A stretch of 64,000 nt of DNA from Candidatus Spyradenecus sp. (GCA_045535075.1 JAZSKX010000005.1:32001-96000), one strand, 5' to 3'. Counted from the first letter of the stretch, positions 1 through 64,000 are shown. Numbers and translations: made by a program. The notes: generated by a model not told the origin, from the letters alone.

Positions 1-2
1 CA

Positions 3-1985
3 ATCATTTATAAAGCAAGTAAAAAAGGCGCTCTCTCGGGAACGTTCGCCCTCGCACCGAACCATTCCGCGAAGTTTTTTGCCCAAAGCAATAAGCTCGG
101 AATGACGGGAACGCTCGCCAACGACATGAAATTTGCGGCTCGCGCCCAAATTATCAACAAGGGCGGGAAACTTTCCCCCGTCGGCGGGAACGCCAACATT
201 GATGTTACCTACACCGGGAAAGGCGACAATCAGCACGCTGTTTATAACGGAGTGTCGCTCCCGCGCATTAAAGTTCAGGGTGCAGATGAAATCATCGTCG
301 TCATCGCGTTGGCAACGGATTACGTTATGGACGCCAAGAAAAACTGGAAAGGCGCCGATCCGGTTTCAACTGCGGAAAAAACGCTCAAGGCTGCAGTTGC
401 AGCAGCCGAAGATCCGACTGCGATGACAGCAGCGCACGTGCGTATTCATCAGAAAATGTTTAAGCGCGTTAAAGTCGACTTCGGAAAAACCGATGCAGAA
501 ACGGCAAAACTGCCGACGCCGGAACGCTTGAAAAAATACGCAACGACGCAAAAAGATCCGGACTTGGAAGAAACGCTTTTCCAATTCGGGCGCTATTGCC
601 TGCTTTCGTCTTCCCGCGGGAGCGCACCCGCGACGCTTCAAGGTATCTGGAACCACAAAGTTCACGCACCGTGGGCTTGCGATTACCACACCAACATTAA
701 CATTCAGGAAGCCTACTGGCCGGCGGAAGTCTGCAATCTTTCCGAATGTGCCATGCCGCTGATTAACTGGCTCGACGCAACGCGTGAAATTTCGGCAGGC
801 ATCACACAACGCGCATTTACGAATCACGAAGGGAAAACCCCGCGCGGATGGACGGCACGCGTCTCGCAAAATATTTTCGGAGCCGGCGGATGGACGATGT
901 GGAATACCGTTTCCAGCGCTTGGTACGCACTTCACATTTGGGAGCATTTCGCGTTCACACAGGATAAAAAATTCCTTAAGGAACAAGGCTATCCGATGAT
1001 GAAGGAAATCTGCCATTTCTGGGAAGATATGCTTAAACCGCTCGGAGAAAACGGAGCCGGATTCAATTCCAAAGATCCGGACGCCGATCTCACGCAACTT
1101 AAAGGCATCCCGGCGGGAACGCTCGTCGCTCCGGACGGTTGGTCTCACGAATGGGGACCGGTCGAAGACGGTGTCGCGCACGACCAGCAGGTCATTTACA
1201 ATTTGTTCACTAACACGATTGAGGCGGCAAAAGTCCTCGGTGTTGATAAAAAATGGGCAGACGAACTCACGAAGAAGCGTGATTTGCTTTACGGGAACAA
1301 AATTTCGAAAAACGGCTACCTGCAGGAATGGATGATTGACCGCCCGGACAAAGTCAGCGGACATCGCCACACCTCGCACCTTTTTGCCGTTTATCCGGGA
1401 AGCCAAATTTCTATGGCAAAGACACCGGAACTCGCGGAAGCAGCAAAGAAATCTTTGGAGTTGCGCGGAACAACCGGGGATTCCCGCCGCTCGTGGTCAT
1501 GGCCGTGGCGCACGGCTCTTTGGGCTCGCTTCAAAGAAGGCGATAAAGCCCACGAAATGATTCAAGGGTTGCTGACGTACAACACGTTGCCGAACCTGCT
1601 GACAACGCACGAGCCGTTCCAAATGGACGGGAATTTCGCCTTCCCGGCAGCCGTCGCGGAAATGCTTGTTCAGTCGCATGCCGGAGAAATTGAATTGCTC
1701 CCGGCTCCTTGTTCCGCATGGAAAAGCGGTAAGGTTTCCGGCTTAAAGGCTCGCGGGAACATCACGGTTTCGTTTGAATGGAAAGACGGTCGCGTCAATC
1801 CGAACAAGATTAAACTTGTCTCGCCGAAAGAGCAAAAAGTCACACTTGTTGTTAACGGTAAAAAATATCGTGTAAAAACTGTAGCCGAAAAGAAAACTAA
1901 AACAAAAGCCGCAACGCCGAAAAAAGGAAAATCCAAGGCCACTAAATCCAAGTCAACGACAAAGAAAAAGTCGCTTCAGGATTAG
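3..1985 (+). CDS. GH95 family alpha-1,2-L-fucosidase (5'-truncated by window edge), Lys-rich C-terminal tail
   Basis: Frame open from position 3. GH95 motifs FQFGRYxLLSSSR, LQGIWN, W-x-x-DYHTNINIQ, HRHTSHL, FQMDGNF. Confidence 0.9.
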   Translation: MIYKASKKGALSGTFALAPNHSAKFFAQSNKLGMTGTLANDMKFAARAQIINKGGKLSPVGGNANIDVTYTGKGDNQHAVYNGVSLPRIKVQGADEIIVVIALATDYVMDAKKNWKGADPVSTAEKTLKAAVAAAEDPTAMTAAHVRIHQKMFKRVKVDFGKTDAETAKLPTPERLKKYATTQKDPDLEETLFQFGRYCLLSSSRGSAPATLQGIWNHKVHAPWACDYHTNINIQEAYWPAEVCNLSECAMPLINWLDATREISAGITQRAFTNHEGKTPRGWTARVSQNIFGAGGWTMWNTVSSAWYALHIWEHFAFTQDKKFLKEQGYPMMKEICHFWEDMLKPLGENGAGFNSKDPDADLTQLKGIPAGTLVAPDGWSHEWGPVEDGVAHDQQVIYNLFTNTIEAAKVLGVDKKWADELTKKRDLLYGNKISKNGYLQEWMIDRPDKVSGHRHTSHLFAVYPGSQISMAKTPELAEAAKKSLELRGTTGDSRRSWSWPWRTALWARFKEGDKAHEMIQGLLTYNTLPNLLTTHEPFQMDGNFAFPAAVAEMLVQSHAGEIELLPAPCSAWKSGKVSGLKARGNITVSFEWKDGRVNPNKIKLVSPKEQKVTLVVNGKKYRVKTVAEKKTKTKAATPKKGKSKATKSKSTTKKKSLQD

Positions 1986-1996
1986 CTTCAATGAGA

Positions 1997-2028
1997 GTTC
2001 CCGTGAGTTTTTTCACGGGAACATTTTT
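1997..2028 (+). terminator. Intrinsic terminator; stem is an inverted pair of the GTTCCCG/CGGGAAC motif
   Basis: GTTCCCGTGA (1997-2006) / TCACGGGAAC (2013-2022), then ATTTTT, just after the GH95 stop. Confidence 0.8.
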
Positions 2029-2079
2029 ATAGGATTCGGCGTTGCTCCCGTGCTTCCGTTCTCTTAAAACATTGCAAAA

Positions 2080-2742
2080 ATGAGTCTGCATAAAAAAATT
2101 CTTTCCCCGTCCATTCTTGCCGCCGACCACGCGGCACTCGCCGAAGGCTTGAAAATTGTCGTCGAAAACAATCTCGAGTGGATTCACCTCGATATTATGG
2201 ACGGCAATTTTGTGCCGAATATTTCGTTCGGACCGCAAGTCGTCAAAGATTTACGCAAGCGCAACACGTCGCTTTTTTTCGACACGCACCTCATGCTCGC
2301 GCGTCCGGATAAGTACATTGAAAAATTCATCGATGCCGGCTCTCAGCTCGTAACAGTTCACGTTGAGCCGGAATACGATGTCGCGGGAACACTAAAACGC
2401 ATTCGCGAACTCGGAAGCCAATCCGGTATTTCGCTCAACCCGGATACTCCGGTAGAGCGCATCTTCCCGTATCTGGAAGCGGTCGATCTCGTACTCGTGA
2501 TGTCGGTTTTTCCGGGATTCGGCGGGCAATCCTTCATCGATAGCGTGCTTCCTAAAATTGAAGCCCTCGCACGGGAACGCGATGCCCGCGGATTATGCTT
2601 CCGCATTGAAGTCGACGGCGGTGTTGATTCGCGTACCGCTCCGCTTTGCCTTGAGGCGGGAGCAGACACGCTTGTCGCGGGAACGGCATTTTTCAAGGCA
2701 CCCGACAAGCCGGCATTTGTCCGTCTCTGCCAGGGCGAATAG
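2080..2742 (+). CDS. rpe: Ribulose-phosphate 3-epimerase
   Basis: SPSIL, HLDIMDGNFVPN, DTHLM, MSVFPGFGGQ, VDGG, VAGTA motifs. Confidence 0.96.
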   Translation: MSLHKKILSPSILAADHAALAEGLKIVVENNLEWIHLDIMDGNFVPNISFGPQVVKDLRKRNTSLFFDTHLMLARPDKYIEKFIDAGSQLVTVHVEPEYDVAGTLKRIRELGSQSGISLNPDTPVERIFPYLEAVDLVLVMSVFPGFGGQSFIDSVLPKIEALARERDARGLCFRIEVDGGVDSRTAPLCLEAGADTLVAGTAFFKAPDKPAFVRLCQGE

Positions 2743-62540: not shown

Positions 62541-62576
62541 GATTTTCACAAGTTTTTCTCCGCAAATTTTCCAAAC

Positions 62577-62608
62577 AAAAAAGCGTTCCCGCACGGGAAC
62601 GCTTTTTT
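62577..62608. terminator. Bidirectional terminator made almost wholly of the motif pair
   Basis: AAAAAAGCGTTCCCG-CA-CGGGAACGCTTTTTT. Confidence 0.88.
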
Positions 62609-62628
62609 GTGTCCGGGAGAAAACTCCG

Positions 62629-63999
62629 TTAAGCCGTCGGCGCGGAATCTTCGTCGTCGCCGGTGATGACTTTGCAAATGCCGATGACTTCTTCGCCCGC
62701 CTTGGAGTCGATATCCATGAGCTTGACGCCTTGCGCGGCGCGCCCCGTGCGGCGAATACCTTTGACCGGCATACGAATTGCCTGCCCGCCCTTCGTCAGG
62801 AGCATCACTTGGTCGGAATCGAGCACGCTGAGCGCGCCCGCGACGCCGGATTTATTCTTGATGCCGATGACGCCGACGCCGCCGCGATTCTGCTTGCGGA
62901 AGACTTCGCCTTCTTCATCGTCGTACTGCGTGCGCTTGCCGATACCGTTTTTCCCGGCGATAAGAAGCGTGCAAGCGGGATCGACGACTTCCATCGCGAC
63001 CACGGAATCGCCTTCGCGGAGCTTCATGCCCGTCACGCCGGCGGCGGAGCGCCCGAGGTTGCGCGCGTCGGTTTCGTCGAAGCGAATCGTCATCCCGTTT
63101 TCCGTAATGAGAATGACTTGGTCGTTCCCGTTGGTGAGTTTGACGGAGATGAGGTCGTCGCCTTCGCGCAGGTTGATCGCGATAATGCCGCGGCGGTTGC
63201 AATTCTTGTATTCGGAAAGCGTCGTTTTCTTAACCACACCGTTTTTCGTGCAGAAGAAGACGTTTTTCGTATCGGTAAATTCCGGAATGCAAAGGAGCGT
63301 CGCGAGTTTTTCGCCGTCCTGCATTTCGATGACGTTCGCGATGGAGCGTCCTTTCGAGGTGCGGGAACCTTCGGGAATTTCGTAGGCTTTCTGAACGTAA
63401 ACGCGACCTTTGTTCGTAAAGAACATAATCGTGTCGTGCGTTTTCGCGGAGAAAAGATATTCGATGAAATCTTCGTTGTGCGTTTCCGAGCCGATGAGAC
63501 CCTTGCCGCCGCGTTTCTGCGTGCGGTAAAGATCAAGCGAGGTGCGCTTGATAAATCCTTCGTGCGAAACGGAAATCATGCAGCCTTCGTTCGGAATCAC
63601 GTCTTCGGGGCGGAATTCGCCTTCGGCGGGACGGATTTCCGTTTTGCGCGGGGACGCGTATTTTTCGCCCATTTCGCGCAGCTCCGATTTTACGAGCCCC
63701 AGGAGTTTCTTTTCGTTGGAAAGAATTTCGCGGCATTCGTCAATGAAGCCCATAAGCTCGATGTATTCGGCTTCGATTTTGTCGATTTCCAAGCCGGTGA
63801 GCTGATATAGGCGCATGTCGAGAATCGCTTTGACCTGAATTTCGGACAAACCGTATTTCGCCATGAGGCGTTGCGCCGCTTCGTCGCGATCTTTCGACGA
63901 ACGAATGATTTTCACGAAATCATCGCAGAAACGATACGCAATTTTAAAGCCTTCGAGAATATGCGCGCGCGCTTCCGCTTTGCGCAGGCGGAACTTCGT
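62629..63999 (-). CDS. gyrA: DNA gyrase subunit A, C-terminal part (runs off window)
   Basis: RAHILEG, AILDMRLxxLTGLE, GyrA-box QKRGGKG, beta-pinwheel repeats, acidic tail. Confidence 0.95.
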   Translation of the reverse strand, partial: TKFRLRKAEARAHILEGFKIAYRFCDDFVKIIRSSKDRDEAAQRLMAKYGLSEIQVKAILDMRLYQLTGLEIDKIEAEYIELMGFIDECREILSNEKKLLGLVKSELREMGEKYASPRKTEIRPAEGEFRPEDVIPNEGCMISVSHEGFIKRTSLDLYRTQKRGGKGLIGSETHNEDFIEYLFSAKTHDTIMFFTNKGRVYVQKAYEIPEGSRTSKGRSIANVIEMQDGEKLATLLCIPEFTDTKNVFFCTKNGVVKKTTLSEYKNCNRRGIIAINLREGDDLISVKLTNGNDQVILITENGMTIRFDETDARNLGRSAAGVTGMKLREGDSVVAMEVVDPACTLLIAGKNGIGKRTQYDDEEGEVFRKQNRGGVGVIGIKNKSGVAGALSVLDSDQVMLLTKGGQAIRMPVKGIRRTGRAAQGVKLMDIDSKAGEEVIGICKVITGDDEDSAPTA

Positions 64000-64000
64000 G

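Follow-up and report, generated by a model that had tools for sequence, protein, structure and literature searches.

What keeps one short, asymmetric DNA word at very high density along a bacterial chromosome? The question is raised by a 64,000-nucleotide stretch of Candidatus Spyradenecus sp. (GCA_045535075.1 JAZSKX010000005.1:32001-96000), hereafter the window, in which the heptamer CGGGAAC and its complement GTTCCCG (the motif) are strongly overabundant. The window is C15:32001-96000 of genome G000, an assembly of 1,949,087 bases in 18 contigs of at most 372 kb that is 99.45% complete. Hyperabundant short words are known in very few lineages: the DNA uptake sequence (DUS) of Neisseriaceae, the uptake signal sequence (USS) of Pasteurellaceae and the highly iterated palindrome HIP1 of cyanobacteria. 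The new case comes from another phylum, in gut bacteria, and is asymmetric like DUS and USS and dense like HIP1. The original prediction, made from this window, took the motif for a candidate DNA uptake sequence or a new chromosomal signature, and our literature searches (covering the word itself, Spyradosoma, DUS- or USS-like terms, and DNA uptake sequences in Verrucomicrobia) returned no description of it. Hits for the word itself were primers and unrelated sequences, and the Spyradosoma papers did not, by title or abstract, concern repeats. The comparisons reported here demonstrate what is, judged from the genomes, a DNA-level, strand-symmetric and site-specific maintenance force confined to one genus. 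This force is absent from foreign DNA and, by the same comparisons, was weakened or lost in two lineages.

Abundance and base preferences of the motif

The motif occurs 246 times across positions 1..64000 (127 copies on the plus and 119 on the minus strand), compared with a mean of 14.53 (standard deviation 4.07, maximum 24) in 100 dinucleotide-preserving shuffles of the window, none of which reached 246. The enrichment is about 17-fold under this dinucleotide model, and the approximately 30-fold value first proposed belongs to a mononucleotide model. The two dense patches counted by hand in the original prediction proved exact, with 30 copies in 1-6240 (12 plus, 18 minus) and 18 copies in 59500-62200 (17 plus, 1 minus). 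The flank preference described there is also real: G follows CGGGAAC in 185 of the 246 copies and G or A precedes it in 218, and the shorter CGGGAA is present 397 times.

Genome-wide, CGGGAAC (6528 copies; 3168 plus, 3359 minus), CGGGAACG (5159), GCGGGAACG (3244) and GCGGGAACGC (1614) are each the most frequent word of their length. This corresponds to one 7-mer per ~300 bases and one 8-mer per 378 bases (2647 of the 8-mer per Mb). All contigs longer than 10 kb carry 2.5-3.9 motif copies per kb, with 3.3 per kb overall, and since the motif occurs in each of these contigs and in 18 independently assembled relatives, it is not an assembly artefact. The word CGGGAACG differs from its own reverse complement and is thus non-palindromic.

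An oriented alignment of 6527 copies gives the consensus y-Y-(G/a)-CGGGAAC-G-(c), with a sharp CGGGA core. Positions with at least 0.09 bits all lie within -3..+8, and elsewhere information is at most 0.02 bits. Under a first-order model, the 10-mer GCGGGAACGC is 80-fold enriched (1614 observed, 20 expected). Single changes within the core occur at 0-3.9 times expectation (pooled, ~1.4-fold), and outside it some substitutions are partly tolerated: at position 1, A is 54-fold enriched; at position 7, G is 12-fold enriched; and at position 9, A reaches 37-fold and T 22-fold. So sharp a specificity profile is what a receptor-like recognition step would produce. Expectations from a maximal-order Markov model were discarded as a null in favour of low-order models and shuffles, because sub-words of the motif occur almost solely within the motif, which brings the ratios near 1 and makes them uninformative.

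Orientation and spacing

The original prediction noted that strong replichore polarity would point to a Chi- or KOPS-type signal (KOPS, FtsK-orienting polar sequence). Polarity is not strong: the G-rich strand holds the motif in 3193 cases and the other strand in 2835 (53:47). Signals of the Chi, KOPS or architecture-imparting type resemble the motif in being G-rich 8-base words spread over the chromosome, and the slight lean to the G-rich strand (53%) would be in keeping with them. However, a 53:47 split is near what G+C skew alone would give, and in 25-kb bins the motif orientation appears, by eye, to track gene strand and not skew. In addition, an 80-fold excess at one copy per 300 bases is an enrichment far beyond that known for any Chi or KOPS. 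The polarity result effectively refutes a polar chromosomal signal, which we regard as scarcely credible.

Gaps between copies are near exponential (mean 295, median 208, coefficient of variation 1.09) and counts per 2 kb are near-Poisson (variance/mean 1.08). Empty stretches form a heavy tail, with 11 gaps of >3 kb compared with 0.3 expected.

Distribution among related genomes

The polynucleotide phosphorylase (PNPase) encoded in the window has its best matches in Candidatus Spyradosoma sp. (92%) and an Opitutales metagenome-assembled genome (88%), in agreement with the Verrucomicrobia placement suggested at the outset. The matching Spyradosoma and Opitutales sequences carry 2.4 and 3.75 motif copies per kb at 64% and 54% G+C, respectively, and the next PNPase relative (75%) lacks the motif. 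All 19 genomes of a single Opitutales genus, placed near Candidatus Spyradosoma, are enriched for the 10-mer, with 138-3301 copies compared with 8-35 for a reversed control, across a G+C range of 52-66%. The 102 genomes that represent four sister genera within the family are all at background for this word, as are 12 genomes representing 12 other families of the order.

Four species of the genus (G001, G002, G013 and G014) have 5- to 20-fold fewer copies, and the other 15 genomes are of high density. The original prediction had suggested a search for motif dialects, and samples of 58-98 kb from each of these four species yielded none; they carry the same word, only more sparsely. In two of them the most frequent words include local unrelated repeats, of the AGATTAAAG type in G013 and the CACCACCAAC type in G014. 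No comparable hyperabundant word was found in five genomes from other genera of the family (46-80 kb each). A genome from another genus of the family (G031) shows a moderate, 5- to 13-fold excess of words of the ACCCGTG / CGTACCCG type (65 copies of the 7-mer in 80 kb), so a sister genus may have a weak word of its own.

Gain, retention and decay of individual sites

PNPase synteny was too poor for counting site turnover, so we used the ClpB-type chaperone gene and a pilin locus. In the ClpB-type codon alignment of 17 species (in which the G008 and G009 sequences, at 52-54% identity, may be paralogues), none of the 34 motif columns falls at a gap. Of these, 13 occur in a single species and five are common to 11-13 species. 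In the low-density sister species, the five widely shared columns have eroded, with 1-3 mismatches to the motif. Since sites align base for base without gaps and with 1-3 mismatches, the motif arises by substitution and not by insertion. In PNPase, a peptide conserved as LLPVL among outgroups is LVPVL (GTT CCC GTG) in the three motif-bearing species examined. Mobile repeats of the repetitive extragenic palindrome (REP) or miniature inverted-repeat transposable element (MITE) type are likewise very abundant and form some intergenic hairpins. They were rejected as an explanation, given this gap-free substitution origin, the lack of any conserved flank beyond ~10 bases and the location of 88% of copies within genes.

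Once present, sites are retained in some species and lost in others. Between high-density species, 902 of 1358 comparisons of motif 7-mers in ClpB show identity (66%) compared with 28% for other 7-mers of this gene, these being comparisons between related species and hence not independent. From high- to low-density species the relation is reversed, with identity in 35 of 454 motif comparisons (7.7%) compared with 17.6% for other 7-mers. The closest relatives of G000 are a low-density trio (G001, G002 and G013) with ~81% DNA identity and 88-90% ClpB protein identity, and the columns that G000 shares with distant high-density clades carry 1-3 mismatches in the trio. At the second locus, three such sites were kept in one of nine species-sites. 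An 'ancestral' site defined through G000 favours G000; counted symmetrically, G000 has nine sites in common with outgroups and G001 has three. In a midpoint-rooted ClpB tree, G014 and the trio form separate low-density lineages nested among high-density ones. The simplest reading of these decay results, which come from two loci and a single-gene tree, is that sites are maintained one by one through a force that has twice weakened or stopped.

Coding sequence and the proteome

Open reading frame-based calls gave 1587 genes, covering 92% of the genome as coding sequence. As the original prediction described, the motif lies in both orientations in coding and intergenic DNA: 5734 copies (88%; 3.20 per kb) are in genes and 793 (12%; 4.96 per kb) are intergenic. 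All six reading frames contain it, with a preference for xCG-GGA-ACG among sense copies (1698) and for GTT-CCC-GCx among antisense copies (1413). Sense copies exceed antisense copies within genes (3404 compared with 2330), and part of the excess is contributed by ten large, almost all-sense genes. Among these are giant genes of 4000-4800 codons at C5:125844-140217, C8:185332-198142 and C9:13797-25875, which carry 69, 64 and 43 copies in sense-to-antisense ratios of 69:0, 64:0 and 43:1. Orientation varies from gene to gene far beyond chance (chi-square 591, 297 degrees of freedom).

The original prediction had made survival under codon-preserving shuffles a decisive point, and the enrichment survives. 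The 5742 coding copies compare with 973 ± 21 after shuffling of synonymous codons with amino acids kept and with 385 ± 12 after shuffling of codon order (20 shuffles each), a 6- to 15-fold enrichment. Because the usage of codons and amino acids has itself been moulded by the motif, the two nulls err on the conservative side. AGT and VPA, each 5.1-fold, head the list of over-represented tripeptides in the proteome, and 1104 of 1207 AGT and 808 of 892 VPA are encoded by the motif. TGT, RER, VPV and RSR are also among the top eight. The motif has reshaped the proteome and forces amino-acid usage. On these counts the signal is one that acts at the DNA level and not at the coding level, and some form of fixation bias at that level is required by the facts.

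Within the window, the ClpB-type chaperone gene used above (42297..45293, plus strand) has 14 copies. The second dense patch of the original prediction coincides with a gene for a 1037-amino-acid GDSL-type protein (59427..62540, plus strand), with 17 sense copies and one antisense copy. An autotransporter-type gene (3940..6099, minus strand) has nine copies, every one in sense.

Foreign DNA and a probable horizontal transfer

The motif-free or motif-poor stretches of G000 are two Mu-like prophages, restriction-modification islands, a reverse-transcriptase island and a gene for a 1609-amino-acid defence-type helicase. The prophages, at C16:183-222 kb and C8:19-36 kb, have 0.7-0.9 copies per kb compared with 3.3 genome-wide. 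A motif-free C5-methyltransferase island (C12:44.6-48.9 kb) has 40% G+C and an adjoining open reading frame that putatively encodes a restriction enzyme, and the stretches adjoining three HsdM genes are also without the motif. Because the motif-free stretches coincide with prophages and defence islands, the motif marks resident DNA.

The Mu-like prophages encode a MuB-type AAA protein, Gam, Gp27, a Mu portal and terminase. In one of them a Dam-type methyltransferase is accompanied by a protein that has an ADP-ribosyltransferase exoenzyme domain, and the other has a C5 methyltransferase. Foreign, mobile or mis-binned DNA may account for two small contigs: C18 (3741 bases), which has no motif copy, and C3 (3143 bases), which has three. 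Lacking any Rfam match, C18 is not a ribosomal RNA contig.

Viral contigs that contain the 14-base palindrome formed by two abutting copies (125 matching stretches) were considered as carriers of the motif and rejected. In the 80 loci in which density was measured, the motif is at chance level (median 0.44 per kb, counting the built-in pair). The sole raised density among the 80 is in L213, a 10-kb IMG/VR contig of 63% G+C with 14 copies (1.4 per kb), which may derive from a phage that infects a high-G+C member of the genus.

An alpha-L-fucosidase / F5-8 type C gene in the window (40410-42491) has nine motif copies and differs at only 28 of 2082 bases (98.7% identity) from a gene of G016 (within C5:163863-168944). 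The other genes of G016 are ~80% identical and the flanks of this gene are without any match. Copies in G007 and G010 are 89% identical. The pattern suggests that this gene alone passed recently from one species of the genus to another.

Inverted pairs and intergenic copies

The original prediction listed pairing in terminators among the traits that define DUS and USS. At spacings of up to 40 there are 265 pairs in the arrangement GTTCCCG-N-CGGGAAC, with a mode of 19, compared with 90 in the opposite arrangement. Genome-wide, 213 pairs have the form GTTCCCG-N0-20-CGGGAAC, of which 138 are intergenic and flanked by A-rich sequence upstream and T-rich sequence downstream. By their neighbouring genes, 50 of these intergenic pairs are convergent, 82 co-directional and 6 divergent. 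A perfect inverted partner accompanies 291 of the 793 intergenic copies (37%), a share that rises to 44% when one mismatch is allowed. Abutting pairs (distance 7), which form the 14-base palindrome, number 21. The three strongest terminator-like stems in window positions 1-20000 are motif pairs, and the total of terminator-like sites there is not above that in shuffles (46 compared with 41.9). We infer from this architecture that the inverted pairs would function as rho-independent terminators.

The window contains nine inverted pairs. The strongest stem in 1-20000 (18 stem pairs; 6203..6246, core 6211-6238) lies between the autotransporter-like gene and the PNPase gene, with an A-tract upstream. 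The second strongest (1997..2022; 11 stem pairs) is a terminator-like GTTCCCG-loop-CGGGAAC hairpin located past a glycoside hydrolase family 95 (GH95) gene, with a T-run behind the hairpin, and the pair at 15297..15320 forms a terminator-like hairpin of 10 stem pairs. A pair at 8613..8635, upstream of the PNPase gene end, is flanked by an A-run and a T-run. Pairs at 10222..10248 and, between convergent genes, at 62585..62600 have an A-tract upstream and a T-tract downstream, and those at 19593..19618 and 37331..37357 have a T-tract downstream. The remaining pair, GTTCCCGCGGGAAC at 36598..36611, abuts to form a perfect 14-base palindrome.

The 444 single intergenic copies point to gene starts and gene ends about equally (233:211), and no further conserved position was found within 40 nt on either side of them. 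The -35 element recognised by extracytoplasmic function (ECF) sigma factors is GGAAC, which is contained in the motif. A promoter-type element is nevertheless excluded, because there is no second conserved element within 40 nt and the orientations towards starts and ends are equal.

Another explanation is that the motif is a binding site, kept by ordinary selection, for a genus-specific chromosomal protein acting in nucleoid organisation, condensin loading, or termination or anti-termination. The sharp specificity profile, the retention of individual sites across species and the use of the word in terminator stems are consistent with such a protein, and maintenance lost in some lineages is as expected if the protein were lost. 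However, some 6500 individually conserved sites that cost amino-acid changes would be a heavy load. Moreover, there is no pattern at gene starts, no polarity and no regular spacing, and no candidate protein emerged. We consider a binding site of this kind quite improbable.

Methyltransferases

The original prediction also entertained a dense methylation site, and in this respect it is not supported. The methyltransferases found in G000 comprise two C5 enzymes, three HsdM, one Dam-type enzyme in a prophage and one weak Eco57I-type match, and every one lies in a prophage or in or beside islands that lack the motif and mostly have low G+C. Across the 19 genomes, none of the three families scanned (PF00145, PF01555 and PF07669) tracks the motif. 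PF00145 is present in 10 genomes but absent from high-density G018, G006, G009, G005, G004, G011, G012 and G017, with three copies in low-density G014 and four in low-density G002. PF01555 is present in 16 genomes and absent from G000, G004 and G006, and PF07669 is sporadic across the genus. A search for Vsr in G000 was negative.

These results count against a modification- or restriction-type target (C5, N4 or N6 methylation, a BREX-like (bacteriophage exclusion) or type IIL-like system, or phosphorothioation at GAAC/GTTC) that became enriched because modified sites were favoured. In its favour, non-palindromic words of 6-7 bases are typical targets of systems that modify a single strand, and the motif includes GAAC/GTTC, the core of phosphorothioation sites. 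Restriction targets, however, are usually avoided and not enriched. With the methyltransferases of G000 in motif-free DNA and three families indifferent to motif density, we give this explanation very little credence.

The case for selective uptake

We tentatively favour, with a probability of about 0.4, the reading that the motif is an uptake signal of the DUS/USS type maintained by fixation bias. Copies of (G/A)CGGGAACG would arise through point substitution, and a process favouring motif-bearing alleles would keep them, site by site. Under this reading, a DNA receptor at the surface or in the periplasm, belonging to a pilus/ComEC/DprA uptake pathway, would prefer motif-bearing fragments, which would be taken up and recombined more often, so that motif-bearing alleles would spread through the population by molecular drive. 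Inverted pairs would later have been recruited as terminator stems because they are tolerated there. The uptake bias would be the force, with the pilus, ComEC and DprA genes as its executors.

All of the sequence hallmarks are present. Like DUS and USS, the motif is a short non-palindromic word dispersed on both strands in hundreds to thousands of copies. It occurs inside genes in biased frames, with a sense excess and effects on the proteome, forms inverted pairs as predicted terminators, and is restricted to a lineage (compare PMC2817400, PMC2346458, PMC3630211 and 10.1101/2025.10.24.684340). As the original prediction stated, the 64-kb window contains no competence gene; ComEC, DprA and pilus genes are encoded elsewhere in the genome. 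The uptake-type genes of G000 are ComEC, DprA, a secretin in a frame of ~990 amino acids, two PilB-type ATPases, one PilT-type ATPase, PilC and seven prepilins. The genes for four of these prepilins form a cluster (C1:259.1-262.4 kb) that adjoins a gene for a Holliday-junction resolvase-like RuvX (C1:258.6-263.5 kb for the region). The cluster of pilus ATPase and PilC genes (C5:25.8-35.7 kb) is two genes from a RecD2-type helicase. The competence-gene search proposed at the outset was therefore answered in part, with ComEC, DprA and prepilins present and two of the proteins sought, ComEA and ComP, not found.

Several observations weigh against selective uptake. For ComEA in G000, Tex accounts for the sole strong HHH_3 hit, and TIGR00426 reaches 45 bits, below its cut-off of 53.1; for the ComP_DUS domain (PF16732), no match was obtained at E <= 0.1. 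No receptor of the ComEA or ComP type was thus found. The receptor for the USS of Pasteurellaceae is itself described as still unproven (10.1101/2025.06.16.659825). ComEC is 570 amino acids long, with the Competence domain alone detected. The genes for ComEC, DprA, the secretin, the ATPases and the four clustered minor pilins are all present in motif-decaying species, where the clustered pilins read without stop codons. The same uptake-type genes are also common in control genomes of bacteria not known to be competent, and our literature search returned no report of uptake or transformation for the clade, including competence in Verrucomicrobiota.

Density and placement weigh in the same direction. 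The motif is far denser than DUS and USS, which occur at roughly 1 per kb; it is about three times as dense and, in a different phylum, is an unrelated word. A process that acts independently at each site accounts better for its density and near-Poisson placement than an advantage per fragment does: a drive through uptake should saturate once every fragment has a copy, as conversion at separate sites would not, and no saturation is seen. With 88% of copies intragenic, 12% intergenic and only ~4% in perfect inverted pairs, the terminator share is below that of DUS and USS, for which about half of copies are reported in terminators (10.1101/2025.10.24.684340). The species of the genus also differ from DUS- and USS-bearing lineages in showing density differences and no dialects.

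Two gene-content explanations for the differences in density were rejected. Loss of competence genes does not account for the decay, since ComEC, DprA, the secretin, the ATPases and the prepilins are all retained. Seven of the 19 genomes (G001, G002, G013, G014, G018, G004 and G012), G000 not among them, have an extra set comprising a second secretin of ~780-880 amino acids, a third GspE/PilB-type ATPase and about four prepilins. The distribution of this set does not track motif density.

A possible process like that behind HIP1

The main rival reading takes cyanobacterial HIP1 (GCGATCGC) as its model. A HIP1-like process unrelated to uptake would be a repair or recombination step, such as biased gene conversion, that rewrites near-matches or protects the word at each site. 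HIP1 is reported at 300-2700 copies per Mb with observed/expected ratios of 55-228 (PMC4390886; see also PMC5861425), and the motif, with 2647 8-mers per Mb and an 80-fold 10-mer, is comparable in density (within the upper part of that range) and in enrichment. Both words occur in all coding frames and are kept between species, and HIP1 too has been used to mark native as opposed to transferred DNA (PMC3497702). The near-Poisson placement without a sign of saturation, the 88% of copies within genes, the site-specific conservation and the fact that the uptake genes checked are the same in motif-maintaining and motif-losing species all suit such a process.

There are also clear differences. The motif is asymmetric, unlike the palindromic words of this class described in PMC4390886, where HIP1 is presented as nearly co-extensive with CGATCG and GATC methyltransferases and a route through methylation is proposed. 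HIP1 thus has companion methyltransferases, whereas none of the families scanned tracks the motif, Vsr was not found in G000 and no candidate enzyme emerged. A kilobase-scale periodicity has been reported for HIP1. On balance we judge a HIP1-like process rather unlikely.

A more specific proposal, which we hold to be doubtful, is that a sequence-specific conversion process involving neither uptake nor methylation writes and maintains the asymmetric 8-mer, and would represent a new 'genome-writing' drive, powerful enough to raise AGT and VPA to the largest tripeptide excesses in the proteome. The gene for such a process should be findable through a presence/absence contrast, because the process would have been switched off independently in two lineages.

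Significance

The origin of hyperabundant words is still argued, and the function of HIP1 is described as unresolved after three decades (PMC5861425, PMC13756078). The genus described here offers a natural experiment, in that sister species with ~80% DNA identity either keep their sites or let them decay, which makes the driver gene directly searchable. In practical terms, the word is a cheap marker for native versus foreign DNA and for checking genome bins in the genus. If the uptake reading is true, the motif would, to our knowledge, be the first uptake signal known outside Proteobacteria, and it would be evidence for species-selective gene exchange in the animal gut.

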